64,000 nt of DNA from Candidatus Saccharicenans sp. (GTDB lineage: Bacteria; Acidobacteriota; Aminicenantia; Aminicenantales; Saccharicenantaceae): NCBI GenBank assembly GCA_030017715.1, contig JASEIU010000001.1, positions 146,677-210,676 of the forward strand. Direction: 5' to 3'. Under the pieces are notes generated by a model, which saw nothing but the letters and a program-made list of their open reading frames with translations, did not search any database and was not told the DNA's origin. This document shows, one piece after another, positions 7,724 through 60,174 of the stretch; within the stretch, counting starts at the first letter, position 1; each line of letters starts with the position of its first letter. The position numbers and the translations under genes were made by a program.

Positions 7724-9085
7724 TTAACCCACAACATCAGCCCTGGCTTTATGATTGAGGAAGTGCTCCATAAACTGGGTGTTGTAATTGCCTTTGACAA
7801 AATCGTCGCTGGAAAGAATGTTCAGCAGCAGGGGAATATTGGTTTTTATGCCGACGATGGTGGTGGTTTCCAGGGCGGCTTTCATCTTGGAGATGGCCAG
7901 TTGCCTGGTAGGGGCATAGGCAATAATCTTGGCCAGCAGAGAATCATAATAAGGCGGAATCTCCCAGCCGGCGTAGGCGGCTGAATCCACCCGGATGCCT
8001 TCGCCGCCGGGAAACACCAGGAAATCTATTTTCCCCGGAGAGGGAATAAAGGTCTCCGGGTCCTCGGCGTTAATACGGCACTCAATGGCATGCCCGCGCA
8101 TTTCCAGTTCCATCGGGAAGTTTATCTTTTCGCCGGCGGCTACCCTGATCTGGGCCTTGATCAGGTTGATGCCGTAAACCATCTCGGTGATAGGGTGCTC
8201 GACCTGCACTCTGGTGTTGGCTTCCATAAAATAGAATTTTTTCTTTTCGTCCACCAGGAATTCGAACGTGCCCAGGCTGCGGTAGCCGATCTCTTCGGCC
8301 GCATCCCGGGTTTCCTTCATCATCCTGTTCCTGGTGCGCTCGTCCAGGAAGGGAGAGGGAGTCTCCTCGATTATTTTCTGGTACTTCCTCTGGACGCTGC
8401 ACTCTCTCTCGCCGAAAGCTATGACTTTTCCCCTGCTGTCGCCGATGACCTGAATTTCAATGTGCCGGGCTCCGCTGATGTATTTCTCAAGATAAAGGGA
8501 GGGGTCGCCGAAGGCAGCCTTAGCTTCATTTTGAGCCATGGGAAACTGTTCTTCCAGGTGAGCGGCGCTGCGGCAGATCCTCATGCCCTTGCCTCCGCCG
8601 CCGGCGGCCGCCTTGATTATAACCGGATAACCGATCTTCTGGGCAACTTTCCTGGCCTCGGCTACGTCTTCCAGGATAATGTCGCTGCCGGGGACAACGG
8701 GCAGGCCGGCTTTTTTCATCGCCTGGCGGGCCCGGTTCTTGTCACCCATTAACTTGATAATGTCCGGCGGCGGGCCGATGAAGACGAAGCCTGAGTTCTG
8801 ACAGATCTCGGCGAACTTGGCATTTTCAGCCAGAAAGCCGTAACCAGGATGGATGGCTTCAGCCCCGGTAATTTCGGCCGCGCTCAGGATGTTGGGGATA
8901 TTCAGGTAACTGTCTGAAGCTTTGGCCGGACCGATGCAGACGCTCTCGTCGGCCAGCATGGCATGGAGCGAATTGCGGTCGGCCTCGGAGTAAACCGCCA
9001 CCGTCTTGATTCCGAGTTCCTTGCAGGACCTGATTATTCTTAGGGCTATTTCGCCCCGGTTGGCTATCAGAATTTTTGAGAACAT
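7724..9085 (-). CDS. accC: acetyl-CoA carboxylase biotin carboxylase subunit
   Basis: 453 aa. The N-terminus MFSKILIANRGEIALRIIR and an ATP-grasp region are conserved throughout. Confidence 0.95.
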   Translation of the reverse strand: MFSKILIANRGEIALRIIRSCKELGIKTVAVYSEADRNSLHAMLADESVCIGPAKASDSYLNIPNILSAAEITGAEAIHPGYGFLAENAKFAEICQNSGFVFIGPPPDIIKLMGDKNRARQAMKKAGLPVVPGSDIILEDVAEARKVAQKIGYPVIIKAAAGGGGKGMRICRSAAHLEEQFPMAQNEAKAAFGDPSLYLEKYISGARHIEIQVIGDSRGKVIAFGERECSVQRKYQKIIEETPSPFLDERTRNRMMKETRDAAEEIGYRSLGTFEFLVDEKKKFYFMEANTRVQVEHPITEMVYGINLIKAQIRVAAGEKINFPMELEMRGHAIECRINAEDPETFIPSPGKIDFLVFPGGEGIRVDSAAYAGWEIPPYYDSLLAKIIAYAPTRQLAISKMKAALETTTIVGIKTNIPLLLNILSSDDFVKGNYNTQFMEHFLNHKARADVVG

Positions 9086-25199: not shown

Positions 25200-25385
25200 A
25201 ACTTTTTTATTTGCTATTCAGCATTTTCTACAGAGATAAATTTACTTTATTAAACACTCAATCAGCATTGCCTGTTAAATTTCTTCGGGATGATTAAGAG
25301 TTGGGTCTCTATCAACCAGCTTTTAATGTTTTTTACCAGGATAAAATTGCAAAAAAATTGAAAAAGCAGCTTAAAAAGGTGAATA

Positions 25386-25773: not shown

Positions 25774-25795
25774 AGGGGACACCATGAGGTGTCCC
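25774..25795. terminator. bidirectional hairpin between convergent Smr and ferritin genes
   Basis: GGGGACACC-atga-GGTGTCCCC is a 9-bp stem. It is flanked by an A-run upstream and a T-run about 15 nt downstream. Confidence 0.6.
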
Positions 25796-25816
25796 CGGTG
25801 AAGCTTTTTTCCGGAC

Positions 25817-26305
25817 TTATTTTCTCTGGGCTAGTTCACGATCGATCATTAACAGGCCCTGTTTATGGTCGCCAACCATTTCCAGTTTAGCCACGATTTC
25901 CTGAGCGTTGGCTTCTTCTTCCACCTGTTCATTGATAAACCACTGCAGCATGGCGAAAGTCGCCCGGTCCTTTTCGGATTCGGCCAGGTCCACCAGCTCA
26001 TTGATCCGGCCGGTGATATGGCGCTCATGATTGAGGACAGCTTCGAAAGCCTGGCGCGGGTTGTTCCAGCTGCGGTCTGGCTCTTTGATGGCCTGAAGTT
26101 TTACCTGACCGCCACGTTCAATCAGATACTTATAGAATTTTTCCGCATGCTCCAGTTCCTCATGGAACTGGACAAAGAGCCAGTGATGAAAACCCATCAG
26201 ATTCTGTTCGGCGAAATAAGCGGCCATCGACAGATAGAGATAGGCGGAATAAAGCTCTTCGTTGATCTGTTTGTTTATGGCTTCTTCTATCTTTTTGCTG
26301 ATCAT
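25817..26305 (-). CDS. non-heme ferritin
   Basis: ELYSAYLYLSMAAYF...EELEHAEKF are ferroxidase-centre residues. It is 162 aa. Confidence 0.9.
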   Translation of the reverse strand: MISKKIEEAINKQINEELYSAYLYLSMAAYFAEQNLMGFHHWLFVQFHEELEHAEKFYKYLIERGGQVKLQAIKEPDRSWNNPRQAFEAVLNHERHITGRINELVDLAESEKDRATFAMLQWFINEQVEEEANAQEIVAKLEMVGDHKQGLLMIDRELAQRK

Positions 26306-26408: not shown

Positions 26409-27530
26409 TTAAGAAGAAGCGAGCTTCATAATAGCCTTTGTCCAGTCATCCGCAGAAAGCCCGGGGGATTCCAGATGACTTTCCCTCAGGACCTTTTCTA
26501 TTCTTTCGAAGATGGCCGGATAGCTCAACTCAACTCGGCTGAGGATTTTTTCCATAATTCCCACCCCTTCTTTGGGTATCGCGGTAAAATCGCCCGAAAT
26601 CCAGAGCGAATCAATAAGTACGGAGTTATTTTCGTTTTTTACCCTGGCGGTTATTCTGATCAAACCGCCTGGTGCCTTGTGTTCCACTTCCCGGACCTGG
26701 ACGTCCTCATGAATTTTTATTCCCGGGCGCAGCAGGGTGCCTTTCTGAAGGACCCATTCAGGGCTCTCGAAAAGGCGGTCGAGCCGTTCAGCTTCGCTGA
26801 GCTCTGCCTGGCTCAGAGTGCCTTCCTTAACTTCCGCTCCGAGCTGACGGGCTACCTGCTCGAGGTAAATCTGTTTCACCCGATTTCTTTCCGGTAGTTC
26901 AGGCAGGAGGTCTTTCATCGTAATCATATACTGTTCAAGGCTCTGAAAAACCTTGTCCCGCATTTTCTCGGAAGAAACCTTTAGAACCCGGGACATGGAT
27001 TTTCGGTCGAAATCAAACATGAAGCTTCCGACCAGAATTTCCGCCTGGCCTATTCTGGCGGCGCCGGTGCCGCCTATTTTTCTGCCGGCCACGTGAATGT
27101 CGTTTACCGGCCGGTAAGAAGCTTCAATTCCGAGCTCCCGGTAAGTGCGGATGATCGGCTCGATATAAAAACGGAATTTGTCCTCAAGAATTTCGGGCAG
27201 ACTTTCCGGGTGGAAGATCCACTGGACAAAAAGCTGGTGGCGGTCGAGATAAACCGCCCCGCCTCCGACCTCCCGCCGGAAAACGGGAAGACCGGCCTGC
27301 CGGCAGTATTCGAGGTCAACCTCCCGCTCGACTTCCTGATGAAAGCCCAGACAAACATAAGGGGAGGCCGGGCTGACCAGGATAATGGTATCTGGAGTAT
27401 CCGGAGTAAAAGCATAACCGACCGCGTGGTAGCAGGTCTGCGACCTCACCGCCGGTACCTGGCCCAGGTCAATCACCCTGACGATTTTACCCTTGGACTC
27501 ATTCATCGATTCACCTCTTGTGAAGTTCAA
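26409..27530 (-). CDS. lipoate-protein ligase (LplA-like, BPL/LPL catalytic domain plus C-terminal domain)
   Basis: REVGGGAVYLD and GRKIGGTGAARI (the catalytic Lys context). It is 373 aa, on the same strand as and downstream of the hydrogenase genes. Confidence 0.75.
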   Translation of the reverse strand: MNFTRGESMNESKGKIVRVIDLGQVPAVRSQTCYHAVGYAFTPDTPDTIILVSPASPYVCLGFHQEVEREVDLEYCRQAGLPVFRREVGGGAVYLDRHQLFVQWIFHPESLPEILEDKFRFYIEPIIRTYRELGIEASYRPVNDIHVAGRKIGGTGAARIGQAEILVGSFMFDFDRKSMSRVLKVSSEKMRDKVFQSLEQYMITMKDLLPELPERNRVKQIYLEQVARQLGAEVKEGTLSQAELSEAERLDRLFESPEWVLQKGTLLRPGIKIHEDVQVREVEHKAPGGLIRITARVKNENNSVLIDSLWISGDFTAIPKEGVGIMEKILSRVELSYPAIFERIEKVLRESHLESPGLSADDWTKAIMKLASS

Positions 27531-27771
27531 TTAATCGCAATGATTTTTTTCCCGGCTGTTTGTAATTCAAAAAATTTCCCGAGGAGATTTTAAATTCTTT
27601 TCCTGGCCTTCGGGCCTCTCCGGACATTATTTGCCCCCGGTCGTTTATTTTTTCAATTTTGCTTCTTTTCATCGTGCTGCTCCTGACCTCATTTTGAATC
27701 TGTTCAATTATCATCGGCCACATTCTGTTAAAATGCGATTGATAAAAATTTTTTGCCGGCCCGGCAGCAGT

Positions 27772-28263
27772 TTAAGCTTTATCCGCAGTGGATATCAACC
27801 AGCCCGACAGAACTTCCAGAGCTCTCCCGGCCATTTTGCCAGCAGCTTTTTCTACTGCCCGGCTGAGGCTTAATCCGAGGCCAATAGCTCCAGGAATGAC
27901 TCCGATCAGATGAACTTCTTCCGGGTATTTTCCCCGGACCCTGGCTACCTCCAGAACTTCCTGGAAACCGAGCTGATGCCAGGAAATTTTTCCGGCGAAA
28001 AAAGTATTTATCTCCTTGTTCTTAAACTCGACCATCTCGCCCGGGTTACCGCCCGCCTCGACCGCATCAAGAATCAAAAGCCGGCTGGCTTTTTCCACAT
28101 ACGGCAGCAGATCCAGGCCCAGCACCCCGCCTTCAATGAGCTCCACCCTCTGTTTCCAGTCCTCGGGCATGATTGCCTCCAGCTTTCTAAGAGCATAAAC
28201 GCCCGCCCCTTCGTCGCGGTTCAGAATGTTACCCAACCCCAGGACGACAATCTTATCCTTCAT
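27772..28263 (-). CDS. [NiFe] hydrogenase maturation endopeptidase (HyaD/HybD/HoxM family)
   Basis: VLGLGNILNRDEGAGV and a later WHQLG are present. It is 163 aa. Confidence 0.85.
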   Translation of the reverse strand: MKDKIVVLGLGNILNRDEGAGVYALRKLEAIMPEDWKQRVELIEGGVLGLDLLPYVEKASRLLILDAVEAGGNPGEMVEFKNKEINTFFAGKISWHQLGFQEVLEVARVRGKYPEEVHLIGVIPGAIGLGLSLSRAVEKAAGKMAGRALEVLSGWLISTADKA

Positions 28264-28499
28264 GTTTATTTTGCTCTTTTACCGGGTGATTTTTTGCCGC
28301 GCTTTTGCCGAAGATGGTCGGAACTAATTTTTCTCCGCCCGTGCCCGCATTGTCCAGTCTCTCTGTCCCGCTCATAACACTGGTTTATTTCGCTCGGCTT
28401 AAAATTGTTTATTCAGTTTTAATCAGGCCATTTTTATTTCTGCCTTAGCGTCATCCGGCCAGCTTCTACAAGACCTTCAGTTTGTCTCGCCGGCGGGTC

Positions 28500-30239
28500 T
28501 CATTTTACAACCAGGTTGAATCCCATGGCTGCCTGTCCCACGGCTTTTCCGCTGGCATCGATCAGATGAACAGCGCAGGCCAGACAGGGGTCAAAAGAGT
28601 GAATCGTCCGCAGGATCTCCAGCGGCTGCCCCGGGTTGGACAGCCTGGTTCCGACCAGCGAAGCTTCATAAGCTCCCGGCTGATTTTTATGGTCGCGGGG
28701 GGAAGCGTTCCAGGTGGTCGGCACCACCACCTGATAATTCTTTATTTTCTTGTTTTCGATCACCACCCAGTGCCCGAGAGCTCCGCGCGGGGCTTCGGTG
28801 TAGCCGAAACCCAGAGCTTTTTTCGGCCAGGTGCGCGGGTCCCATTTTTCGTCATTGAAGGTGTCGGTGTTTCCAGCTTTAATTTCCGCAATCAGCTCTT
28901 CGTAGAATTTCTGCAGCAGCCCGCCGATTACTTTGGTTTCAATAGCTCTGGCGGCCGTTCGCCCGAGAGTCGAGAACAGCGCGCTGACCGGAGCTTTGAG
29001 CTCTTCCAGAACGGCGTTCACCAGCTCGACGGTTTCCCTGTGACCGGCGGCATAAAGCAGAAGCACCCGGGCCAGCGGCCCGACTTCCATCGGAAGTTCG
29101 TTCCAGCGAGGGGATTTCAGCCAGGAATATTTGCCTTCTACCTCTAAGTACTCGTACGGCGGCTTCGGGCCGGTGTAGTTGAAAATTGTTTCGCCTTCCC
29201 AGGGGAAGAGCCCGACTTCGTCGCCCTGGCTGTACCTATACCAGCTGTGGGTGACGAATTCTTTCATTCTGGAGGCGTCTCTCGGGTCGGGGATGATAAC
29301 GTTTTTCAGGTCTCGGTTGAGGATGACTCCGCGGGGGAATATCAATTTATCAATTTCATTCAGCTTTCCTTCCGGAAATTCGCCCCAGGCAATAAAATTG
29401 CCCAGTCCTTCTCCCAATGAAGCGTATTCCAGATAGTATGGTGCCACCGCCAGAAGGTCAGGCAGGTACACCTGGTCGATAAAGTCGTTCATCCTCCCGA
29501 TGGAATCGGCAATGACCGCAAACTTCTCAGCGTTGAGCGCCTGGTCGGAATTCATATCTATAGAAAGCGGCACTCCGCCCACCACGAAATTCGGATGCGG
29601 GTTCTTTCCGCCGAAGATGGTGTGAATTTTCGTTACCTGCGATTGCCAGTCGAGACATTCGAGATAGTGGGCCACTGCCAGCAGGTTTATTTCCGGCGGC
29701 AATCTGTAAGCCGGATGCCCCCAGTAACCGTTGCTGAAAAGTGAAAGCTGGCCCGAATCCACGATGGCTTTGACTTTTTTCTGCACCTCGGCGAAGTATG
29801 CCGGCGAAGAATTCGGCCAGCCGGAGAGGCTCTGCTGAATATCCGAGACTTTTTTCGGGTCAGCCTTCAGGGCGCTGACCACATCGACGAAATCCAGGGC
29901 GTGCAGAATGTAAAAATGCATCACGTGGTCGTGGATATACTGCTGGGCTATTATCATGTTGCGCATCAGGTTGGCGGCTTTCGGAATGTCTATCCCCAGA
30001 GCGTCCTCCACCGCTCTTATTGAGGCTATGGCATGGACCGTGGTGCAGACGCCACAGATTCTCTGGGCAAAAGCCCAGGCTTCCCGCGGGTCGCGCTTTT
30101 TGAGGATGTTTTCTATCCCCCGGACCATCGTACCGGCCGAATAGGCTTCGGTTATGGTGTTGCCTTCATCAAGTTTGGCTTCAATTCTTAAATGCCCTTC
30201 TATTCTGGTTATCGGGTCGATAACGATTCTTGTGGCCAT
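28500..30239 (-). CDS. hynL: [NiFe] hydrogenase large subunit (Isp-type, group 1e by gene order)
   Basis: The start is set at MATRIVIDPITRIEGH with RBS GGGAGGGA. It has RICGVCT and a C-terminal DPCLACAVH followed by a cleavable extension. Confidence 0.9.
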   Translation of the reverse strand: MATRIVIDPITRIEGHLRIEAKLDEGNTITEAYSAGTMVRGIENILKKRDPREAWAFAQRICGVCTTVHAIASIRAVEDALGIDIPKAANLMRNMIIAQQYIHDHVMHFYILHALDFVDVVSALKADPKKVSDIQQSLSGWPNSSPAYFAEVQKKVKAIVDSGQLSLFSNGYWGHPAYRLPPEINLLAVAHYLECLDWQSQVTKIHTIFGGKNPHPNFVVGGVPLSIDMNSDQALNAEKFAVIADSIGRMNDFIDQVYLPDLLAVAPYYLEYASLGEGLGNFIAWGEFPEGKLNEIDKLIFPRGVILNRDLKNVIIPDPRDASRMKEFVTHSWYRYSQGDEVGLFPWEGETIFNYTGPKPPYEYLEVEGKYSWLKSPRWNELPMEVGPLARVLLLYAAGHRETVELVNAVLEELKAPVSALFSTLGRTAARAIETKVIGGLLQKFYEELIAEIKAGNTDTFNDEKWDPRTWPKKALGFGYTEAPRGALGHWVVIENKKIKNYQVVVPTTWNASPRDHKNQPGAYEASLVGTRLSNPGQPLEILRTIHSFDPCLACAVHLIDASGKAVGQAAMGFNLVVK

Positions 30240-30255
30240 CGTTCCCTCCCTTTGA

Positions 30256-30576
30256 TTATTGGTTTCGAAGCCATTCCAGGGCTTCTTCTTCGGTTCTGAA
30301 CCAGCGAACTTCCATAGCATAATAGCTTCTGTCTATTTCCAGGATTTTCGGGTCGATTTCAGCTCCAAAGATGGCCGCTGTCGGCATAATTGGTCTCATA
30401 TGTTTTATATGGCGCAGGCACTCGGCTGGATCTGTCCCGCTGAGGTCGATCAGAAGTTTTCCGTGGTATTCGCGGAAAAATAAAGTCAACGATTGAATGT
30501 CTTCAGGAGTGAAAGGTCCGGTGTGACGACAGCGGAGGATGCCTTTTTCAACCGGGGTAAGATTAAAGGATGCCAT
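30256..30576 (-). CDS. small STAS/SpoIIAA-like (DUF3478-like) protein inserted between isp2 and hynL
   Basis: 106 aa, with 15-16-nt gaps on both sides. The C-terminal RWFRTEEEALEWL resembles the STAS/SEC14-like family. The assignment is tentative. Confidence 0.5.
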   Translation of the reverse strand: MASFNLTPVEKGILRCRHTGPFTPEDIQSLTLFFREYHGKLLIDLSGTDPAECLRHIKHMRPIMPTAAIFGAEIDPKILEIDRSYYAMEVRWFRTEEEALEWLRNQ

Positions 30577-30591
30577 GTTGCCCTCCTTTCC

Positions 30592-31857
30592 TTAAATCAG
30601 GGACCTGGAGACCAGCTCGGCCAGGCCGTGGACTTTGACTGGCAGGTTGAAATGCCCGAGGCTGTCGACAAACTGCAAACGGCAGTTGCTGCAGACCATG
30701 CAGACGGCCTGAGCTTCTATCTCCCGGAGTTGCTCGACCTTCATCTCGAAGACCGCGTAGCGGTTGGCGTCGGCCTCCTTGATGGAAATTACCCCGCCGC
30801 CACCGCCGCAGCAGAGAGCCTGTTCCCGGTTTGGAGTCATTTCCTTGAAATTTTTGCCGGCCAGCGCCTGGAGCAGCTCTCTCGGCTGTTTGATTATTCC
30901 TCCCCGACGCTGAATCTTGCAGGAATCGTGGAAGGTAATTGTCCCTGCCTCAAAAGCCCCGTCTTTAATTTTTATCCTTCCGGTTTTCCAGAGGTGGTGG
31001 ATGTACTCGCTGATGTGGACAATTTCCACCCCTTTCGGAACTTTCATGATATTGGGAGCGTTCCAGCGAAAAGCGTCATAGGCGTGACCGCATTCGCTGA
31101 TTACGATGCGCTTAACAGCCAGCTCTTCAGCTGCCCTGAAAACCCGGTGCATGAAAAGCCGGGTGAGTCCCTCGTCGGCCTCAAAGTATCCAAAGTTGAC
31201 CACTTCCCGGCCTTTTGAGCTGACGGTCCAGTTTTCTCCGGCCCGGTTAAGAATCTTAGCCACCGCGGCCAGATTGTCCGGGAATTTCATCAGTTCGATC
31301 GAGGTAAAGACCACCAGCGTCTCCGCCCCGGTTTTATCAACCGGTATCTCCACCTCCCATTCATCGGTAATCCAGTCGACTCTTTCCCGCCACATTTCGT
31401 CAGTGACTCCGAGCGGGCTTCCGATGGTCTTTTGCTTTTCGGTGGCTTCAGCCAGGTCAGTCGGAACCACACCGGCGGCTGTCAGTCCGGCCCTGACCTC
31501 GTGAATCAATGGACCGAGCTCAATGCCCATCGGACAAACGTGGGCGCATTTGTTGCAGACGGTGCAGGCCTCAAAGACAATCCGGCTCCAGCGTTCGAGG
31601 TCTGAATCGGAAAGCCTTTTTTCCAGACCAAGAGCCAGTTTTAGTTTCCCGCCCGGGGTAAATCGCTGTTCATAGGCTCGTCTGAGCGGCTCGAGTTTCC
31701 ATACCGGGGCGTATTCTGGATTGCCGAGTGCCTGATAAAAATGGCAGGCTTCGGCGCAGATGCCGCATCTGGTGCAGGCTTCAAGCTGACTGGCGACCCA
31801 ACCGCCGGTTTCCCGGAGGTAAGTATTGATGGCTGATTCTGTTTTCTGGCTTTTCAT
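30592..31857 (-). CDS. isp2: Isp2: HdrD/DsrK-like Fe-S protein with CCG domains
   Basis: The start is set at MKSQKTES, 13 nt after the isp1 stop. It has CTRCGICAEAC, CTVCNKCAHVCP, CCGGGGG and CSNC. Confidence 0.85.
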   Translation of the reverse strand: MKSQKTESAINTYLRETGGWVASQLEACTRCGICAEACHFYQALGNPEYAPVWKLEPLRRAYEQRFTPGGKLKLALGLEKRLSDSDLERWSRIVFEACTVCNKCAHVCPMGIELGPLIHEVRAGLTAAGVVPTDLAEATEKQKTIGSPLGVTDEMWRERVDWITDEWEVEIPVDKTGAETLVVFTSIELMKFPDNLAAVAKILNRAGENWTVSSKGREVVNFGYFEADEGLTRLFMHRVFRAAEELAVKRIVISECGHAYDAFRWNAPNIMKVPKGVEIVHISEYIHHLWKTGRIKIKDGAFEAGTITFHDSCKIQRRGGIIKQPRELLQALAGKNFKEMTPNREQALCCGGGGGVISIKEADANRYAVFEMKVEQLREIEAQAVCMVCSNCRLQFVDSLGHFNLPVKVHGLAELVSRSLI

Positions 31858-31870
31858 GGTCGACCTCTTT

Positions 31871-32548
31871 TCAGGGCATAATCGCCCTCTTGCCGGCCTG
31901 GGCTCCGTGGATGGTCCTGGAGAAGAAATAGAAAAGGAAGTGAGAAATTCGCCCCAGGGGAATCCAGATGAGGAGCAGGCTGACGGAGATAAGATGCAGA
32001 CTGAAGATAACTTCATACTTAAACCACAGGTGTCTGGCCATGATGAAGCCGGTTATCATCGGAAGAAAAACCACCACCCAGTTAATCCACACGGGAAGTC
32101 TGGTGAGCAGCTTTAAGACCGGATGGGTGAGTCTGTTGACCAGAAGGATAATTAGCGAGATGATCCCGACCGAAGAGAAGAAAGACACCACCGGCGTTGG
32201 CAGCGGCTTCCAGCTCAGGCCAAAAAGACTTTTCCAGACCAGGATGTGAGCTGTGCCGAAAGCCAGAACCACAAACAGGCTCAGGTGGAACAGCCCGCCG
32301 GCGATAAAGGTCAATTCGTTCCGGCGAAAAGTCCTGCCCACCCAGGGGATAAAGGGCAGAATGATCAACCCTTTCAGGTAGTTGATGACCACTCCCTTCA
32401 GTTTGCTTCCTTTATTGCTGGCCCGATCTCTCTCCCAGCCAAGCAGGACGACTCTGACCAGCCGGTAGCTCATCCCAACCACAAAAATTATCATCGAGAT
32501 ATGGAGGAGAGGACCGCGAGAAAAGCTGAGAATTTCTGTCCAGTTCAT
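31871..32548 (-). CDS. isp1: Isp1: NarI/DsrM-like di-heme b membrane subunit
   Basis: 225 aa with about 5 TM helices and conserved His residues in the helices. It sits between the small subunit and the HdrD-like gene. Confidence 0.75.
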   Translation of the reverse strand: MNWTEILSFSRGPLLHISMIIFVVGMSYRLVRVVLLGWERDRASNKGSKLKGVVINYLKGLIILPFIPWVGRTFRRNELTFIAGGLFHLSLFVVLAFGTAHILVWKSLFGLSWKPLPTPVVSFFSSVGIISLIILLVNRLTHPVLKLLTRLPVWINWVVVFLPMITGFIMARHLWFKYEVIFSLHLISVSLLLIWIPLGRISHFLFYFFSRTIHGAQAGKRAIMP

Positions 32549-32549
32549 C

Positions 32550-33695
32550 TCAGTCCTCCTTCTTTTCTTCCGCCGGAGAGACCGGCTGTTCTGGTTTGAC
32601 GACCGCTTTACGGGCGCGGGTTTTCTTCACCGCGTTCACTCCAGCCAGAGCGGCCCCCAGGGCTGTTCCTGCGCCGATCAGAGTGGCCGTGGAGCCTTTA
32701 TCGAGCTTCATCGTCGGGGCGGACTGCCCTTCATAGAAGCCACCGCCATCCCAGAAATGTGGCTCTGAACAACCAAGGCAGGGATGTCCCGATTGGACCG
32801 GGTAGGAAAGACCGCGCTCCCATTTGAGACCGGCACAGGCGTTATAAGTGGTTGGCCCCTTGCAGCCGAGCTTGTAGAGGCAGTAACCCTTCCGGGCACC
32901 TTCATCGTCAAAACTGCCGACAAATTTTCCAGCCTCGTAGAATGGCCGGCGCAGACAGTGGTCGTGGACTGTGTGGCCGTAAAACGGCAGCGGCCTTTTA
33001 AGACTGTCAAGGGCCGGCAACTGTCCCATTACCAGAAAGTGAAGAATGGTTCCAGTGGTCACCTCAGGAATGGCCGGACAGCCCGGAATATTCACCACCG
33101 GTCTGTCTTTGATAAGGTCAGCCACGCCCACCGCGCCGGTCGGGTTTGGCCGGGCCGCCGGAATCCCACCGAAACAGGCGCAGTTTCCGGTGGCGATGAT
33201 GGCCGCCGCTCCGGCCGCTGACTCCTTGAGAATCTCCAGGTTGCTCTTTCCGCCCACCGTGCAGTAGATTCCGTCATCGGCGGTGGTCGGACTGCCCTCG
33301 ACCACCAGCACATATTTTCCGTAATATCGTTTCAGGCATTCTTCTCTGGCTTTTTCCGCCTGGAACCCGGCCGCGGCCATCAGGGTCTCGTGGTACTCAA
33401 TGGCAATATCTTCAAGAACCAGCCTGCTTAAAAGAGGAGAGCTCGATCGGGAAATAGCTTCTGTGCAGCCGGCGCAATCCTGAAATTCCAGCCAGATGAT
33501 CGGAACCCTTGGTTTAGTCTTGAGGGCCTGAGCCACCACCTCTTCTGGAGAGGGATTAAGGACCTTGCCCAGGGCTTTGACCGGCGGTGAGAACTCCAGT
33601 CCCAGCATCCCGGCTATGGTGCCGCAGAGCTTCATGAAATCCCGCCGGGAAAGCCCTTTCTCCCTGAGATGTTCATAAATTGTTTTTTCCTTCAT
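32550..33695 (-). CDS. hynS: [NiFe] hydrogenase small subunit, Tat-exported
   Basis: It has the twin-arginine motif SRRDFMK, Cys clusters (CAGCTEA, GCPAIP, CLGCSEP) and a C-terminal hydrophobic helix. Confidence 0.9.
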   Translation of the reverse strand: MKEKTIYEHLREKGLSRRDFMKLCGTIAGMLGLEFSPPVKALGKVLNPSPEEVVAQALKTKPRVPIIWLEFQDCAGCTEAISRSSSPLLSRLVLEDIAIEYHETLMAAAGFQAEKAREECLKRYYGKYVLVVEGSPTTADDGIYCTVGGKSNLEILKESAAGAAAIIATGNCACFGGIPAARPNPTGAVGVADLIKDRPVVNIPGCPAIPEVTTGTILHFLVMGQLPALDSLKRPLPFYGHTVHDHCLRRPFYEAGKFVGSFDDEGARKGYCLYKLGCKGPTTYNACAGLKWERGLSYPVQSGHPCLGCSEPHFWDGGGFYEGQSAPTMKLDKGSTATLIGAGTALGAALAGVNAVKKTRARKAVVKPEQPVSPAEEKKED

Positions 33696-33799
33696 TTACC
33701 CTCCTTGGTGAAGGAACTAAATTTATGTTCTTATCGTTTTTATCGCAACCACCCTGGTTACCTCGGCCTGACTTCTTAAGCCAACTGCCCTTTATGATC

Positions 33800-34246
33800 T
33801 CAGTCGCAGGAGATGCCGGCGGCTTCAAGCTTCTTCTGGTATTCGGCCAGACCCTCAGGACCGGTCAGAAGAGCGGCCTTTTCTTCTTCCCATCTGGTGG
33901 CCTCCATTTCAACCACCCAGCCCTCGCCATAGGGATCGCTGATTACAAGATTAGGTTCGCTGGCCAGCCGCTCGTTGACGGACCTGACGATTCCGGTAAT
34001 CGGTGCTGGAACCGGCCCCACATATTTGCTGCTTTCAAGTGTTGCCAGGCTTTTTCCCTGCTGTACTTCATTTCCGATGTTTTTCGAGCGAATGGTTACA
34101 GCGTTAAGTTTCCCTCCGGACAGCTTGCCGGCCATCGGCGTCAGCCCGACACGAAACAGATTTCCGCCCAGCGGCTTCAGCCAGAGGTGTTTTTCCGGAT
34201 AATAAAAAAGGTCTTCAGGAAGGTTGCAACCGCGGATTATAGCCAT
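33800..34246 (-). CDS. GcvH-like lipoyl-carrier protein (LbpA-like)
   Basis: The start is set at MAIIRGC with RBS AAGGAGG. It has HLWLKP and TLESSKYVGPVPAPITGIV, with the lipoyl-lysine position conserved. No gcvT or gcvP is nearby. Confidence 0.75.
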   Translation of the reverse strand: MAIIRGCNLPEDLFYYPEKHLWLKPLGGNLFRVGLTPMAGKLSGGKLNAVTIRSKNIGNEVQQGKSLATLESSKYVGPVPAPITGIVRSVNERLASEPNLVISDPYGEGWVVEMEATRWEEEKAALLTGPEGLAEYQKKLEAAGISCD

Positions 34247-34272
34247 GTCGCCTCCTTGTGTAATTATATCGA

Positions 34273-34641
34273 TTAAAATGTTAAAACCGTTTTGCTTTCC
34301 TCGGCCATCTGCCACATAGAAGCGCCGCCCACCAGCCTGGCTTCGGGAATGAGGTCATCCGGGGTGAGCCCATGCAGTTCAAGGGAAGCGGTGCAGGCGG
34401 TCATTTTTACACCCGACTCGATGGCTTCTCTGAGAAATTCTCCGACCGACTTGCCTCCTTCCCTGGGAAAGACAGTCTCGGCCAGACCCTTTTTGAGGAG
34501 CAGGGTGCCGTCAATGGTGAAGAACATGGTCACCTCATAATCCATAGCCGTGGCCAGGGTGGCGAAGAAAAACGGGGTGGCGCAGCGCCGGGGAGTGTCC
34601 GGACCGCTGGTCATGATGATCAAAATTTTGTCGTCAGCCAT
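34273..34641 (-). CDS. DsrE-family sulfurtransferase-like protein
   Basis: 122 aa. It has ILIIMTSGPDTPRRCATPF and MTACTASLELHGL, the DsrE/TusD-type Cys context. Confidence 0.7.
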   Translation of the reverse strand: MADDKILIIMTSGPDTPRRCATPFFFATLATAMDYEVTMFFTIDGTLLLKKGLAETVFPREGGKSVGEFLREAIESGVKMTACTASLELHGLTPDDLIPEARLVGGASMWQMAEESKTVLTF

Positions 34642-34651
34642 GGATTCCTCC

Positions 34652-35125
34652 TCAGAAGGTCAGGGTGATGGCGTCCTGACTGGCGAATTCCAGGAAAGTT
34701 GCCGCTCCGCCTATTTCTATGCCGTCTATCAGGTCTTCCTTTTTAATTCCCATCACATCCATGCTCATCTGACAGGCAATCAACCTGACCCCGAGTTCGC
34801 GGGCGGTGTCGAGCAACTCACCCAGGGTGGCCACCTTCGATTTTTTCATCCAGGATTTCATCATGGCCGTGGCCGCAGCGGTCATTCCGGGCAGCATGGC
34901 AATTATGTTGGGAATCTTTACCGGCATGGCCGGATTGGCCAGGGGCGAAACTTTGAGCTTGTTGATTTTTCCTTTCTTGAGCACTTCCAGCCCGTAGAAG
35001 GCAAAATAAACAGCGGTCTCCATTTCCATGGCGGCCCCGGCTGTGGCCAGGACGAAAGTGGCAAAGGCCACGTCGAGGCTGCCGTGCAGACAGATAATGG
35101 CCAGTCTCTTTTTTCCTTCTGGCAT
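34652..35125 (-). CDS. DsrE/DsrF/DrsH-like (DsrE3-type) protein
   Basis: 157 aa. It has LAIICLHGSLD..., FYGLEVLKKG and RLIACQMSMDVMGIKKEDL, typical of the DrsE_2 family. Confidence 0.7.
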   Translation of the reverse strand: MPEGKKRLAIICLHGSLDVAFATFVLATAGAAMEMETAVYFAFYGLEVLKKGKINKLKVSPLANPAMPVKIPNIIAMLPGMTAAATAMMKSWMKKSKVATLGELLDTARELGVRLIACQMSMDVMGIKKEDLIDGIEIGGAATFLEFASQDAITLTF

Positions 35126-35242
35126 TATTTATCCTCCTATTTGAAATTGATTTTTCCGGTAAGGCTATTCTGGAGTGTTAATCCGAGTGGATGATACTTC
35201 TGCGTCCTTTTGTTCATTGGTGTCCGGTCTTTGGGCAGGACG

Positions 35243-35482
35243 TTACTTTGCTTTGCGGATGTAAAAAATAAATTTGTTGCCCTCGGTCTCATACTTGAGA
35301 AGCTCATGACCGGTTTTGCTGACCCAGGCCTGAACATCTGGCAGAGAGCCGGGGTCAGTGGCAATCATCTTAAGGATCTGACCGACTTGAAGTCCGTCGA
35401 CGGCCTTTTTGGTCTTGATGATGGGCATCGGGCAGGCCAGTCCGCTGTTGTCCAGAATAAGGTCAGGGTTGATGTCAGACAT
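35243..35482 (-). CDS. tusA: sulfur carrier protein TusA/SirA family
   Basis: 79 aa. LDNSGLACPMPIIKTKKAV carries the CPxP active-site motif. Confidence 0.85.
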   Translation of the reverse strand: MSDINPDLILDNSGLACPMPIIKTKKAVDGLQVGQILKMIATDPGSLPDVQAWVSKTGHELLKYETEGNKFIFYIRKAK

Positions 35483-35683
35483 TTAAGACCTCCTGTTGAA
35501 ATTTTTTGGCGCTAAAAAAGAAAAGATTGCAGGGTTAGGTGAAAGATAATGGGCTGAACTAACTTTATTAAATTCTGAATTCTGGAGAAAGCGATCCCGG
35601 CTGAAGACAGGGCCGGGGGTTGGAGGGCCCTGCCCGGGACAGAGAAAACCTCTGGCTTTGTCCACGGCCGTCATGTTAATCCC

Positions 35684-35712
35684 ATTATCCTACTATTCCG
35701 ATAAAAATACAA
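35684..35712 (-). promoter_or_regulatory. candidate sigma70-like promoter for the tusA cluster, TTGTAT-N17-GATAAT
   Basis: Read on the minus strand, about 200 nt upstream of the tusA ATG. The -35 is weak. Confidence 0.3.
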
Positions 35713-36372
35713 GGAATTAGAATAATTTTTTGCAAATTCCCGGGAATCGGCCAGGGTCGGCCTAACGAGGCGGGGAACAACTGAAGAAAAAAGAAACACC
35801 CTTCCCTCCCGTTCTTTTGACTAAGCCCTCCGCTATAACTCTAAGGTAATGTTTATTCCCGGTGCTGTCAAGCAGCCTGTTCTTTCAGGCGCAACAGATA
35901 TCCGGGCCAGGGGATGTAAAGGTCTGAACTGCGATGGCCCGGAGAAGCCAGCTTCCTGGCTCAAAAAGGAGGTCTCAACAATTGCCGGAGGGGCGGTCAT
36001 GATGCCAGAAGTGCGGCGGGGGATGAATCTCCGGTTGCCTCCGGGGCAGATCGCAGCCCGGCCTGAGATCGGGCGGCGATGACGGGCGGAGCCGCGACCT
36101 GCCCTTGTCCCGACCTGAGTCCTGGCCAAAGGAGAGCGGAAATCGGCTACGGGAAGGCGGCTTGGCTCCGGTTCACCCAGTTCGGCAGCCTGAGAGATTG
36201 TCCACAGGCGATCGGGGCAGGAAAGGAAGGGCAGCGGCCTCCCGAGTCCGAATTCTTTTCTTGAGAGGAGTCGCCGCTGAAGGAAAGATCTTTATGGATA
36301 ACCTGAAGACGTCCGTGGCAGAAGAAGCTAAAAGCCCCTGTTACCCTGTTTATCTCTGGTCTCCGGTCCGGC

Positions 36373-36396
36373 GGCAAATAAATTTGCCTTTTTTTT
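36373..36396 (+). terminator. attenuator-like intrinsic terminator in the leader of the FadL-like gene
   Basis: GGCAAA-taaa-TTTGCC is followed by T8. It lies 43 nt upstream of the ATG at 36439. Confidence 0.45.
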
Positions 36397-36438
36397 AAAT
36401 TTTTGATAATAGTTAGCAAAACTTTAAGGAGGTTAAGA

Positions 36439-55754: not shown

Positions 55755-58133
55755 CTAAAAATTAAGCTTCTTGTTTCGGGCCGGATAGTTTACCCAGGCC
55801 TCCCCGTCCCAGTATTTAATCCGTTCTTTGAGGCTTCTCAGTTCTGTTTCAGCATGCGGCGGCAGAGTCCGGGAGGCCACCAATTCCTTAACGGCTTCTA
55901 TCAGCCCATCGGTGGGCCGTGAGAGCAAAGGGCGGAGCCGGAAATCAAAATTGTAGAGCATCCGGCAGGAAACTTCTTTGCTGAATTCATGACTGGTGAT
56001 TTCCAGCATTTTTTCTTCCCGGAAAAGTTGTACGGTTATGATGTAATTGCGCAAAGCCATCATCTGGTTAATTGTCGTCCTGGGCAAGAGCAGGTAGTAT
56101 TCCTGGGAGCCCTCCGGCAGTTCGCTGAACAGGAAATCGGGGTTGCCGCTTCCCGGGGAGCAGCCGGTTATGGCTCTCGGGTCGAGAACCAGAAGGCAGG
56201 CTTGTTGAAAGTCGTTGTTGGTCCCGCCAGCGATGATTTCCCGCCAGCCGTCATCATCCAGGTCTTCTATTAACAGGGCCGCCTGGCCGAGATGCCCGGT
56301 CTGCCAGTATTCCCCGCACAGCTTGCCCCCGGCATCGAGAAGCGAAATCTGGGTCGGGTACCAGGTGATATGGTTTCCCACGACCAATACATATTTCTCC
56401 GGGGAGTTGCGGTTAAAAGCGGCCGTCTCAAACCTCTTTATCAGGTAATGATTTGAAAATTCGTCGGTCAGGGTCTTGATCTTCCGGCCGGGCTGGTAGC
56501 TCCACAACAATTTTCCCGATTTTTTCAGGCAGAAAAGTTCCGCGCTGACCTTTTCTTCGCTCTGATACTCCCCCGATACCAGGATTTCATCCTCTCCGTC
56601 TCCGTCGAGGTCTACAAATTTTTGCTGCATGGTTTCCGGCCTGAATGGCCTGCGCAGCGGAAAAGTCCAGAGAAGCTGTTGTTCGGGATTGCGAGCAAAA
56701 AGACGGCTGTCGTGAAGCTCCAGTATCACCGGATGCCTGATTTTCCAGAAGTGATAGACGGGATTCTTGTTGATTATGACCAGGGCGGCGGTTATGATGG
56801 CCAGACCGATAATGGCCAGCAACCCCCGCCGGAAAAGCGGACCTCCGGTCCTGACCAGGTGGGTTATCAAGGGCGTTTTTATTTTCTGGCAGATTCGACC
56901 GTCGGCAATAATTTCCTTTAAGTTGCCTACCCCGATCAGTTCCAGCTTTCTCCAGGGATGCCTGGCCAGGAGATTGTACAGAAAGCTTCGGGCCTCCTTA
57001 AGGTTATCGGCCGGAATGACCAGGTAGCGGAGGCCGGAATAAAAAGCCGTCCGGACCTTTTGTTCCAGGGCCTCCGGTGAAAGGCGCTGCGTTGTGCCGT
57101 TGAGGAGGACCTTGCCGGTAAAAGCCGCTTCGCGAGAAAAGGCAAAATAAAACCGGCGCCGGCCGGCAACCAGTTTCTGGCTCAGGGCCAGGGTGGCCAG
57201 GGGCAAGCTGAGACTTTCTCCGTAGTACAGAAAGTTTTTTTCGCTGAAGGAAAAAAGAAGGGAGCAGGGGGGAAGATTGAGTCTATATTCGGTCTTGAGG
57301 AGGTAGTCGGCGGCTTCCAGAGCATCGCTGGCCATCAGGTAGGATTTTTCCTGGTTATATGATGACAGGTTGGAAAACCTCACCAGGTTATGCCCTTCGG
57401 CTGCTCCGGTCCGCCGGCAGCGGCTTTCCAGCAATAACAGCCTGGCCCGCTGACCGGCCTGAAGCGGGCCGCTCCTTTCGACCAGGGGGCAAAAAATACT
57501 GTCACTGCTCCAGTCTGAAAATCTTTTCCATTTTTCCTGGATCAGGTCAAGGTCCAGGGATAGCCCATTATCCCGGACTAACCTTGCGGCCAGTTCAAAG
57601 AAAATAAGCCGGTTGGAGCGGTCCTGATTCTTGAGTTCCCGCACAAAGTCCGGAATCTCTTCTCCGGAGCTCTCGGGTTTATCGGCCAGACCATCGGCGG
57701 AGACGGCGGCGGTCAGTTTCTTCTTCTGGCCCAGGGCCCTCAGGGCCTCTTCCAGTTCTCCCAGGTAAAAATGGTTCAGGGCCAGGTAAAACAGCAGATT
57801 GCTCAGGGTTTCCTTCAATTGCTCGAAGTGGATTCGATCCTGAAACCTTCGGTAAAGTTGCCATGAGGTTTCCAGGTAGCCCTGCAATTCTTCCGGCGGC
57901 AACCCGTCAGGCTGGAAGGAAGCGGTCAGGAAGAAAAACATGCCGGCCAGCTGAAGATGAAAAGAGTGAGTCAGGTCTTCCGGCAGGTCGCTGGTGGAGC
58001 GGAAGAATTCTGTTATCAGGTGAATCCTTTCCTGCTCGTCGGCGGCCATAGACAGGCTGGATAGGGTCTGGCCGAAAAAGTTCTCCAGGGCGGCTACCGG
58101 GTTACCCGGCGGATATTCTGGCTTGTTATTCAT
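55755..58133 (-). CDS. 792-aa membrane protein: helical/TPR-like N-terminus, Lon (S16)-like domain, one TM helix, FG-GAP/VCBS-like C-terminal region
   Basis: GESLSLPLATLA...FTGKVLLNGTTQRL..EQKVRTAFYSGLRYLVIPADN parallels the Lon GPSAG...TGE...K..AA...G...IP..N pattern. The TM helix is LLAIIGLAIITAALVII. It also has DLDGDGEDEILVSG and DLDDDGWREIIAGG. Confidence 0.55.
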   Translation of the reverse strand: MNNKPEYPPGNPVAALENFFGQTLSSLSMAADEQERIHLITEFFRSTSDLPEDLTHSFHLQLAGMFFFLTASFQPDGLPPEELQGYLETSWQLYRRFQDRIHFEQLKETLSNLLFYLALNHFYLGELEEALRALGQKKKLTAAVSADGLADKPESSGEEIPDFVRELKNQDRSNRLIFFELAARLVRDNGLSLDLDLIQEKWKRFSDWSSDSIFCPLVERSGPLQAGQRARLLLLESRCRRTGAAEGHNLVRFSNLSSYNQEKSYLMASDALEAADYLLKTEYRLNLPPCSLLFSFSEKNFLYYGESLSLPLATLALSQKLVAGRRRFYFAFSREAAFTGKVLLNGTTQRLSPEALEQKVRTAFYSGLRYLVIPADNLKEARSFLYNLLARHPWRKLELIGVGNLKEIIADGRICQKIKTPLITHLVRTGGPLFRRGLLAIIGLAIITAALVIINKNPVYHFWKIRHPVILELHDSRLFARNPEQQLLWTFPLRRPFRPETMQQKFVDLDGDGEDEILVSGEYQSEEKVSAELFCLKKSGKLLWSYQPGRKIKTLTDEFSNHYLIKRFETAAFNRNSPEKYVLVVGNHITWYPTQISLLDAGGKLCGEYWQTGHLGQAALLIEDLDDDGWREIIAGGTNNDFQQACLLVLDPRAITGCSPGSGNPDFLFSELPEGSQEYYLLLPRTTINQMMALRNYIITVQLFREEKMLEITSHEFSKEVSCRMLYNFDFRLRPLLSRPTDGLIEAVKELVASRTLPPHAETELRSLKERIKYWDGEAWVNYPARNKKLNF

Positions 58134-58812
58134 ATAAATAAATTCTCATAGATCCAGCATTCTCTGGCAGTTCGTAAAAGGTCAGGTCATTCTGGGGGAC
58201 GGCGATCAACGTTTCCTGGTCATCTATTACCAGGATCATCCTTTTAATTTCAGAGTCTGCCGGCAGATTAACCGACTGGACTTTCAGCGTCGCCTGAGGC
58301 CCGACCGAAAAAAGCTCGGTCTTCAGCCGGCAGTCTTTAAGATGTTCCTCGGCATAAATTCGGACCGGTTCTCCATCCGGTCTCCATTCGAAAATTGCCG
58401 AGGGCGGGCAAACGGAGACAGCTGCCAGCGACCGATCCTGGTCGACCTGGCCCAGGACGGCCCAGCCGTGATGGTCGGTCAGGAATTCCCGGTTCTGATT
58501 TTCCAGCATAATATAAGCGTAACGGTACTTGTGCTCCAGGGGATGTAAAAGATAGGCCTCCAGCCGCCCGCTCAACTGGTCATGGAGTATCCTCAGAAGA
58601 AAGCTGTGGTCGGGAGAGACCAGAGCAATTTTTTCGGAGTAAATTTCATAGGAAGAAAGGCCGCTGAAACCTACCAGGTGAGGAAAAGGCGACACCTGGC
58701 TGAGATGATGGAACAACTTAATCCTGTTCCGGAAACTGGCCGGCCGGGCTATTTCCGAACACCGGTCGATGAGTTTCTGGTCGGAGCTTTTCTTATAATT
58801 CCTGTCCATCAT
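58126..58812 (-). CDS. hypothetical cytoplasmic protein (228 aa)
   Basis: It overlaps the downstream gene by 8 nt and the upstream gene by 20 nt. No motif was recognised. Confidence 0.55.
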   Translation of the reverse strand: MMDRNYKKSSDQKLIDRCSEIARPASFRNRIKLFHHLSQVSPFPHLVGFSGLSSYEIYSEKIALVSPDHSFLLRILHDQLSGRLEAYLLHPLEHKYRYAYIMLENQNREFLTDHHGWAVLGQVDQDRSLAAVSVCPPSAIFEWRPDGEPVRIYAEEHLKDCRLKTELFSVGPQATLKVQSVNLPADSEIKRMILVIDDQETLIAVPQNDLTFYELPENAGSMRIYLYE

Positions 58813-59890: not shown

Positions 59891-60174
59891 AATTAAACGC
59901 CAATTGCCTGCCCCTGTCAAGAACATATTGAAAAGGGGTAATCGGTCGGGATATAATGATTCAGGTCCCCGGGCAGGGGCTTATGAAAGGTGTCTCTGCT
60001 TTCGTAAGCGGCGGACGGGATCTCAGGCCGACGGCGCGGCCTTGATTTCTTTCCGTCCGCTGCCAGAGAGATTCCCCGGTGGATGGATGAAGCTACGAAG
60101 CCGGGGAGAAGGCCGGGACAGATTTCTCCGCCCGCTCCGGCCCGCCGCGGAAACCGGGAGGCTAAAGGTAAAAG

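Follow-up and report, generated by a model that had tools for sequence, protein, structure and literature searches.

The window analysed here is a stretch of 64,000 nucleotides from Candidatus Saccharicenans sp. (contig JASEIU010000001.1 of assembly GCA_030017715.1). Its minus strand carries, between positions 26409 and 35482, 11 co-directional genes running from tusA to a lipoate-protein ligase gene, in which an Isp-type [NiFe] hydrogenase (HynS, Isp1, Isp2 and HynL) is joined to a set of sulfur carriers (TusA, two DsrE-family proteins and a lipoate-binding protein of the LbpA type). This arrangement is far beyond chance, its gene order being repeated in 27 further public loci, and a functional coupling of Isp1 and Isp2 with the carriers is likely. 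The 11 genes could form one functional unit in which electrons from H2, passed via Isp1 and Isp2, reduce sulfane sulfur or a disulfide held on LbpA, a proposal for which we judge the case to be evenly balanced. The identities of the genes and their catalytic residues, the colinearity of the cluster across phyla, the co-divergence of LbpA with the hydrogenase, and the presence of the carriers beside Isp1 and Isp2 where the hydrogenase is absent are direct observations.

Read in the direction of transcription, the cluster begins with tusA (35243–35482), encoding a 79-residue sulfur carrier with Cys17 within a CPxP motif (PF01206, E = 1.4e-24). Two genes for DsrE-family sulfurtransferases follow, one DsrE2-like (DrsE_2; 34652–35125, 157 residues; PF13686, E = 2.6e-46) and one DsrE3-like (34273–34641, 122 residues; PF02635, E = 9e-20), and then lbpA (33800–34246; PF01597, E = 2e-26), which specifies 148 residues in the public gene call and whose open reading frame (ORF) extends to 34315. 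The hydrogenase genes come next: hynS, for the small subunit (32550–33695; TIGR00391, E = 3e-123, with a TAT_signal_seq match); isp1, for an integral membrane protein of the NarI/DsrM/TmcC/HmcE type, a putative dihaem cytochrome b (31871–32548; NCBIfam TmcC, E = 8e-35, and HmcE, E = 2e-26); isp2, for an HdrD/DsrK-like cytoplasmic Fe-S protein (30592–31857; PF02754 CCG, E = 5e-15); an ORF of 106 residues with a STAS/SpoIIAA fold (30256–30576; PF11964, E = 1e-5); hynL, for the large subunit (28500–30239; PF00374, E = 5e-224); and hynD, for a HycI-type maturation endopeptidase (27772–28263; PF01750 HycI, E = 1.5e-25; present in 21 syntenic loci). The last gene encodes a lipoate-protein ligase in which an LplA-like catalytic part is fused to an LplB-like C-terminal part (26409–27506; PF21948, E = 8e-38); a longer ORF with a TTG start reaches 27530, while the public gene call stops at 27506. 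From tusA to lplA, the successive gaps measure 117, 10, 26, 104, 1, 13, 15, 16, 236 and 265 bp. All the genes named in the first-pass annotation of this DNA were recovered on the minus strand, at the coordinates it gave, by the ORF list, Pfam and NCBIfam; its count of twelve was a miscount, the next co-directional gene (ferritin, 25817–26305) lying beyond the range. A second public record (GCA_030018335.1, contig JASEFW010000023.1, which begins at window position 25371) bears identical calls for the 11 genes; a gene lying left of that start had no match on record, so the 25 kb before it might derive from a different contig.

Forty ORFs of the window (ten cluster proteins and 30 ORFs of at least 150 residues from elsewhere in the window) were put through Pfam. 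Among them there was no HdrA, HdrB or HdrC, no DsrAB and no other Hdr or Dsr catalytic subunit; nor were EtfAB, the sHdr core proteins (the flavoprotein sHdrA, sHdrB1/B2 and sHdrC1/C2), DsrC, or LipS1/LipS2 and other radical-SAM proteins found, the last being missing from the cluster as well. The absence of sHdr and Dsr catalytic genes, already remarked on in the first-pass annotation, extended to the flanks of the 24 syntenic loci described below. In those flanks no additional CCG protein was seen either, save one weak partial match at the end of locus L006.

Conservation of the arrangement was examined by scanning with an LbpA profile, one genome per species being taken, which yielded 80 loci, followed by local phmmer searches with the 11 window proteins. 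All 27 further loci with an LbpA identity of at least 52% showed the same colinear order: tusA-dsrE-dsrE-lbpA-hynS-isp1-isp2-(STAS)-hynL-hynD-(lplA). The detailed analysis covered 24 intact loci plus the window (25 loci). The neighbourhood survey bore out the suggested synteny of the tusA-to-lbpA block with Isp-type hydrogenases in each close relative, always with short gaps; across the 25 loci the median distances were 22 nt for dsrE-lbpA, 57 nt for lbpA-hynS (range 17–161), 9 nt for hynS-isp1, and 10 nt for both isp1-isp2 and STAS-hynL. According to the record titles, the hosts included Acidobacteriota, Ignavibacteriaceae, Melioribacteraceae, Calditrichia, Acidimicrobiia and many Chloroflexota (Anaerolineae, Caldilineaceae, Thermoflexales, Oscillochloris sp. 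ZM17-4 and Herpetosiphon), among others; these taxon names are those given by the depositors and some may be imprecise. Oscillochloris sp. ZM17-4 was the only one titled as a named strain, the other loci being from metagenome-assembled genomes (MAGs). The family is abundant in public metagenomes, with at least 120 LbpA protein clusters (grouped at 90% identity), the 120 best matches listed all being at least 63% identical to the window protein.

The carriers are conserved to the same degree as the enzyme. Mean identity to the window ranged from 0.61 to 0.72 for TusA, both DsrE proteins, LbpA, HynS, Isp2 and HynL, and the active-site Cys and Lys residues were all invariant. Pairwise identities of LbpA correlated with those of HynS (0.81), Isp2 (0.81), Isp1 (0.76) and HynL (0.76), the values among the hydrogenase subunits themselves being 0.83–0.88. 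LbpA and the hydrogenase subunits have thus diverged together, and the unit has therefore been passed on as a whole, by inheritance and by transfer. In two MAGs with MFD isolate names (L004 and L032) the whole cluster was split into many short frame-shifted ORFs, which looks like the result of assembly indel errors, not decay. Some Chloroflexota loci (L016, 8626–9666; L017, 16143–17184; L018, 17160–18245) had hypA-like and hypB-like maturation genes after hynD in place of the lipoate ligase gene.

As a control, the 80 metagenome loci closest to the HynL of Allochromatium vinosum (74–83% identity) were analysed. Homologues of tusA, dsrE, lbpA, the STAS ORF and lplA were found in 0 of the 80. 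The gene order in these loci was hynD-hynS-isp1-isp2-hynL, with hynD placed upstream of hynS in 31/80. The carrier linkage marks a distinct subclade of hydrogenases, a restriction that may explain why model work on purple sulfur bacteria and Aquifex never met it. With the Isp-type group 1e HynSL-Isp1-Isp2 enzymes of A. vinosum, Thiocapsa, Aquifex and Acidianus, the window cluster shares the gene order, a HynS with a twin-arginine translocation (Tat) signal and a His-bearing membrane protein Isp1; the two kinds of Isp2 have in common two ferredoxin motifs and one CCG motif, down to every Cys. The window type nevertheless forms a separate clade, present in records titled Chloroflexota, Acidobacteriota, Ignavibacteria, Calditrichia and Actinomycetota, in which the place directly upstream of hynS, filled by hynD in classical loci, is taken by tusA, two dsrE genes and lbpA. 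As a rule, a STAS-fold ORF also separates isp2 from hynL, and a gene for a lipoate ligase follows downstream.

The order hynS-isp1-isp2-hynL, cited in the first-pass annotation as the hallmark of group 1e, was present both in the window and in the 24 syntenic loci. The best PDB match of HynL was the A. vinosum protein (3MYR_B), with an end-to-end alignment scoring 798 bits at 61.6% identity; group 1d enzymes scored 702 and 656 bits, and the group 1c enzyme Hyd-2 of E. coli 535 bits. Identity to HyaB was 50% and that to HybC 47%. In a neighbour-joining (NJ) tree rooted on HybC (all trees reported here are NJ trees of small samples), the HynL proteins of the LbpA-linked loci formed a single clade, sister to 25 A. 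vinosum-type sequences, with E. coli HyaB outside. A placement beyond group 1e had been named as fatal to the original reading; by bit score, identity and sister clade, HynL is instead group-1e-like. Because it stands apart from the A. vinosum type, this clade might be labelled by HydDB either as 1e or as a new subgroup. The Cys residues of the NiFe site (Cys62, Cys65, Cys552 and Cys555) were invariant in the alignments of the syntenic loci, as were the Cys and His ligands of the Fe-S clusters in HynS, a protein that also has the Tat signal SRRDFMK and a hydrophobic C-terminal stretch. Isp1 shows six hydrophobic segments, for which reason it is taken to be an integral membrane protein, and six invariant His.

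Isp2 contains two CxxCxxCxxxC motifs, one full CCG motif (C313-X35-CC349/350-X38-C389-XX-C392) and Cys256, all of these Cys being invariant. It scored about 222–224 bits with each of the NCBIfam models TmcB, DsrK (222.6) and HmcF, all under the equivalog cut-offs, and a search of PDB sequences gave no close solved homologue (best match, 60 bits). There were 2159 relatives at E < 1e-20, of which the best 120 were all close relatives with generic names. The cubane and CCG Cys residues were kept in the hydrogenase-linked, classical, hydrogenase-free and dsrC-linked groups of Isp2/DsrK-like proteins, and in the Isp2 tree the LbpA-linked clade was sister to classical Isp2. The protein has been known since the first hyn operon sequences of Thiocapsa and Acidianus. 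Its partner was said in the first-pass annotation to be undefined, and a 2021 review indeed gives Isp2 as being of unknown function (PMC8551704). With respect to the small ORF between isp2 and hynL, Cys16, His18 and Cys53 were invariant across 15 sequences (the window plus full-length homologues from 14 of the 24 other syntenic loci). A search of PDB sequences gave no close solved homologue; an AlphaFold2 model (pLDDT 76.8) had the STAS structure 4XS5 as its top fold match (TM-score 0.57), so that, as far as model and fold search go, a STAS fold is confirmed and no functional clue is provided.

On the carrier side, Cys17 of TusA was invariant in 23 aligned sequences. That two DsrE-family proteins are present agrees with the first-pass annotation; the subtype labels it attached to them were probably swapped. 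The 157-residue protein scored 161.7 bits with the NCBIfam DsrE2 model (cut-off 210), had 3PNX as its best PDB match and kept Cys118 invariant. The best PDB match of the 122-residue protein, in which Cys20 and Cys83 are invariant, was 3MC3, a structure named DsrE3A (Tanabe 2024, PMC11094781). The lipoyl-carrier protein held Cys7, Lys74 (the lipoyl site, in the motif ESSK) and Cys147 invariant in an alignment of 25 sequences. LbpA proteins are defined by a strictly conserved lipoyl-Lys and by two strictly conserved Cys near the N- and C-termini that are missing in GcvH (Cao 2018, PMC6067878). The carrier scored 91.5 and 70.3 bits with NCBIfam GcvH models that have cut-offs of 117 and 116, thus falling under every GcvH cut-off, and no gcvT or gcvP lies near its gene in the window. 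With E. coli GcvH as the root, a tree placed the hydrogenase-linked proteins in one clade beside the first LbpA copy of sHdr clusters, and Cys-free GcvH-like sequences fell outside. Its identification as GcvH was rejected on account of the scores, the Cys/Lys/Cys signature and this placement; the clustering with bona fide H proteins against which the first-pass annotation had warned did not occur. Outside the hydrogenase-linked clade, the nearest LbpA relatives belonged to sHdr clusters (L027–L036). One of these, L028 from Alicyclobacillus tolerans, is a type II sHdr cluster: besides two lbpA genes and lplA, it contains genes for an HdrA-like flavoprotein, CCG proteins, EtfAB and a radical-SAM protein.

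The ligase scored 126.7 bits with TIGR00545, under the cut-off, and an LplB-like C-terminus was detected. It matched ligases encoded next to tandem lbpA genes with 397 bits (L036) and 242 bits (L028), as opposed to no more than 84 bits for any solved LplA; to judge from these scores, it is of the kind linked to LbpA. The view that TusA, DsrE-type transferases, LbpA and dedicated ligases are accessories of the sHdr system is documented, as is the fact that in such systems LbpA works with CCG-domain subunits while TusA and DsrE proteins pass sulfur towards it (PMC6067878, PMC11094781).

The carriers also occur without the hydrogenase. Anaerolineae loci L037, L039, L163 and L164 encode thioredoxin, an ArsR-type regulator, TusA, a DrsE_2 protein, DsrE, a NarI-like membrane protein (PF02665, matched by the Isp1 counterpart of L037), an Isp2-like CCG protein and LbpA, and have no hynS, hynL or hynD. 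Their six non-hydrogenase components are those of the window, in near-identical order and with the same Cys/Lys/Cys signature in LbpA; they differ in that lbpA comes after isp2, and in having the regulator and thioredoxin genes upstream. Since these loci retain the carriers together with isp1-like and isp2-like genes, the carriers go with Isp1/Isp2 and not with HynSL. With the Isp2-like protein of these loci, at least 34 protein clusters shared an identity of 62% or more. The same Fe-S family includes, at 43–47% identity, members encoded in dsrC-dsrM-like-dsrK-like trios beside a cysteine desulfurase gene in MAGs of Aminicenantes, candidate division B38 and Bacteroidales. These trios (L167, 6024–8353; L168, 5034–7335; L169, 2746–5061; L170, 1329–4196) have as neighbour a class-V aminotransferase (cysteine desulfurase-like) gene, and no dsrAB within the flanks displayed. 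A recurrent theme is a pair of NarI-like and HdrD/DsrK-like proteins encoded beside a small cytoplasmic sulfur carrier. For DsrK this carrier is DsrC, its established substrate (reported by Santos et al. 2015). In the Isp2 tree the hydrogenase-free, LbpA-linked proteins grouped with the dsrC-linked ones and not with hydrogenase Isp2; linkage to LbpA is therefore found on two branches of the family.

Two further loci bear on the distribution of such gene pairs. In a Deltaproteobacteria MAG (JAOUEW010000003.1; L165, 201–11044), genes for an HdrD-like protein, EtfBA, a 684-residue CCG protein, a GcvH-like protein, a membrane protein, an Isp2-like protein, TusA, two DsrE proteins, a second LbpA and a ferredoxin stand together, a hybrid that may be an intermediate between a type II sHdr system and an Isp1/2-LbpA module. 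A Candidatus Terraquivivens archaeon (L052, 190–8941) has three successive pairs of genes for a GcvH-like protein and a CCG-domain Fe-S protein, which hints at lipoyl carrier plus CCG protein as a wider theme.

A mechanism can be proposed in which HynSL, a periplasm-facing, membrane-bound [NiFe] uptake hydrogenase, would oxidise H2 outside the membrane, as the Tat signal of HynS implies. The electrons would cross the membrane via the Isp1 haems and reach Isp2, which is read as cytoplasmic along with TusA, the DsrE proteins, LbpA and the ligase because no signal peptide was noted in them. TusA and the two DsrE-type transferases would hold sulfane sulfur as cysteine persulfides and load it onto LbpA, at the lipoyl dithiol and/or at Cys7 and Cys147, with the co-encoded ligase maintaining the lipoylation of LbpA. 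The CCG-domain cluster of Isp2 would then use the H2 electrons to reduce a lipoyl disulfide, persulfide or trisulfide on LbpA, regenerating the carrier and releasing H2S. With protons freed outside and consumed inside, the whole would be a charge-separating, energy-conserving redox loop, analogous to the action of DsrMK on the DsrC trisulfide and of HdrED on CoM-S-S-CoB. Electron exchange between Isp2 and the carriers gains support from the co-divergence of LbpA with the hydrogenase subunits, from the retention of the carriers with isp1-isp2 in the hydrogenase-free variant, and from the equivalent position occupied by dsrC in distant relatives. We infer from these data the physical interaction between Isp2 and LbpA, the chemistry of the substrate, the reductive direction and the conservation of energy. 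For the reductive mechanism as a whole, the arguments on either side seem to us of about equal weight; the narrower claim that LbpA, bearing a lipoyl disulfide or sulfane sulfur derived from TusA/DsrE, is the physiological acceptor of Isp2 in an energy-conserving, H2-dependent reduction of sulfur in the cytoplasm is put forward tentatively, as somewhat short of probable.

Several points weigh against this mechanism. Its entire basis is gene context. Since classical Isp enzymes do without such carriers, the use of LbpA need not be a general property of Isp2. The ligase is less tightly coupled to the rest of the cluster: its identity correlations are only 0.27–0.34, and among the other 24 syntenic loci only 15 gave a full-length copy for alignment. 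The cluster includes neither a sulfur importer nor a rhodanese gene. The main rival is an oxidative or bidirectional scheme in which Isp2, in the manner of sHdr, oxidises sulfane sulfur or dihydrolipoyl-LbpA and hands the electrons via Isp1 to quinone, the hydrogenase being a second donor or an H2-evolving outlet. Each characterised LbpA/TusA/DsrE3/Lpl(AB) set serves sulfur oxidation, the direction opposite to that proposed (PMC6067878, PMC11094781), and, as mentioned, the closest LbpA relatives outside the clade reside in sHdr clusters. Like sHdr systems, the hydrogenase-free variant comes with a regulator of the ArsR type, and in it menaquinol electrons would have to travel uphill to lipoamide; flow from dihydrolipoyl groups to quinone is thermodynamically favoured there, and the oxidative direction fits it better. 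DsrMK-type modules, moreover, run both ways, as the reverse Dsr pathway illustrates. Yet neither the window nor the flanks of the syntenic loci contain an HdrA-like flavoprotein, a sulfite-handling gene or EtfAB, and we know of no single CCG site that performs the four-electron oxidation to sulfite. The named hosts are, in addition, mostly anaerobic fermenters, and the periplasmic hydrogenases of group 1 are typically uptake enzymes. On balance the oxidative or bidirectional scheme is considered unlikely, if a serious contender.

The same components might instead maintain the redox state of the cell, as an H2-powered, thioredoxin-like relay that counters reactive sulfur species or oxidative stress and conserves no energy. 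Some DsrE groups have been proposed to act in the detoxification of reactive sulfur species (PMC11094781), thioredoxin and ArsR-type regulator genes flank the hydrogenase-free variant, and in the window a ferritin gene follows lplA co-directionally after a gap of 103 nt (25775–26305 region). This ferritin linkage was unseen in the other loci, however; to spend a Tat-exported, transmembrane hydrogenase and its dihaem cytochrome b on housekeeping would be costly, and the fact that the cluster co-diverges so tightly and has spread so widely by horizontal transfer suggests a selectable energy trait, all of which makes a purely protective role improbable. Still less credible is that the genes are independent neighbours that merely travel together, the carrier and lipoyl genes serving cofactor or tRNA thiolation, or the maturation of hydrogenase Fe-S clusters. 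TusA is multifunctional in other bacteria, and the longest spacers of the window are those at lbpA-hynS (104 nt), hynL-hynD (236 nt) and hynD-lplA (265 nt), as such an explanation would have it. It is already disfavoured by an order kept across phyla with gaps down to 17 nt, by the co-divergence of LbpA with the hydrogenase subunits and by the persistence of the carriers with Isp1/Isp2 when HynSL is absent, and we give it hardly any weight. A role of the carriers in hydrogenase maturation was rejected: classical Isp hydrogenases mature without carrier genes (found in 0/80 loci), and the hydrogenase-free variant has them.

Set beside the sHdr-LbpA systems (types I and II; Hyphomicrobium denitrificans, Aquifex aeolicus and Alicyclobacillus), the window cluster shares an LbpA with its Lys and two Cys, TusA, DsrE-type proteins, an Lpl(AB)-like ligase and a CCG-domain redox partner. 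It differs in lacking sHdrA, B1, B2, C1 and C2, EtfAB/Emo and LipS1/S2, and in having one lbpA gene where sHdr clusters usually have a tandem pair. As CCG partner it has an HdrD/DsrK-type subunit that is tethered to the membrane and fed by a hydrogenase, and the direction would probably be reductive. With DsrMK(JOP)-DsrC and HdrED the common features are a NarI-like cytochrome b, a cytoplasmic subunit that bears a single CCG motif besides two [4Fe-4S] motifs and, as known or proposed substrate, a small carrier of the cytoplasm encoded close by. In those systems, however, the carrier is DsrC or CoM-S-S-CoB and the donor is the quinol pool, whereas here the proposed carrier is LbpA with TusA/DsrE and the donor a directly attached periplasmic hydrogenase; genes for DsrAB or DsrJOP are also missing from the window. 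An H2-dependent reduction of elemental sulfur is on record for the Hyn/Hyd enzyme of Thiocapsa (PMC10892978), in line with the proposed mechanism.

A full-text search of the literature returned no paper that joins LbpA or other lipoate-binding proteins to Isp, DsrK or HdrD-type proteins or to a hydrogenase operon, and the main sHdr papers are silent on hydrogenases in this sense. No description of the hydrogenase-free tusA-dsrE-dsrE-isp1-like-isp2-like-lbpA module was found in the literature searched. The components are all of known kinds; as far as we can tell, it is their combination that is new. Current database entries name the carrier and Isp2 only as 'glycine cleavage system protein H' and '(Fe-S)-binding protein'. 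LbpA, TusA and the two DsrE proteins are concrete candidate partners for Isp2 that can be produced and directly tested. LbpA and its ligase have hitherto been seen as parts of sHdr sulfur oxidation, and their linkage to a hydrogenase, where sHdr genes are missing from the neighbourhood, gives protein-bound lipoate a wider part in sulfur and redox metabolism. If the proposed mechanism is true, an unrecognised coupling of periplasmic H2 oxidation to the reduction of a cytoplasmic protein-bound substrate would occur widely among uncultured Chloroflexota, Acidobacteriota (Aminicenantia), Ignavibacteria and Calditrichia, and lipoyl carrier proteins would be a second class of substrates, beside DsrC, for DsrK/HdrD-type enzymes. 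As the hosts are usually called fermenters, the cluster could also change the assignment of H2 and sulfur cycling in sediments, aquifers and digesters.

Scans for promoters and terminators revealed no strong minus-strand terminator within the cluster; the sole strong intrinsic-terminator-like hairpin on this strand of the region lies at 25796–25775, just after the ferritin gene. Promoter-like sites were no more frequent across the region than in shuffled sequences. The candidate promoter TTGCGA-N17-TAAATT of the first-pass annotation does sit in the lbpA-hynS spacer, as claimed, but it agrees with the consensus at only 8/12 positions and was left unflagged by the scan; an internal promoter at this site is not a conserved feature, since the spacer is only 17–30 nt long in other genomes. 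Upstream of tusA, the 920 bp that separate it from the divergent FadL-like gene (35483–36402) contain no convincing ORF. Intergenic conservation with the nearest relative (L003) was limited to one AT-rich, promoter-like segment of 38 nt on the minus strand (~35683–35720), about 200 nt upstream of tusA and 87% identical by blastn over 38 nt to L003 positions 8573–8610, which makes it a candidate operon promoter. In 19 of the 25 syntenic loci, tusA is preceded by a co-directional regulator gene (for example L005, 7948–8733, and L007, 8057–8839), the product of which combines an HTH_17 DNA-binding domain with a PocR sensory domain that contains conserved Cys; this regulator is missing upstream of tusA in the window, L003, L060 and L023.

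An Rfam scan of the entire window gave no match. Three successive overlapping ORFs on the minus strand at 55755–59926 (792, 228 and 377 residues) had no Pfam match at E ≤ 1e-5. The cluster is flanked by unrelated genes, with ferritin and Smr on one side and, on the other, a FadL-like outer-membrane protein, TPR proteins, a fucosidase and a transporter of the sodium:solute symporter family (SSF).

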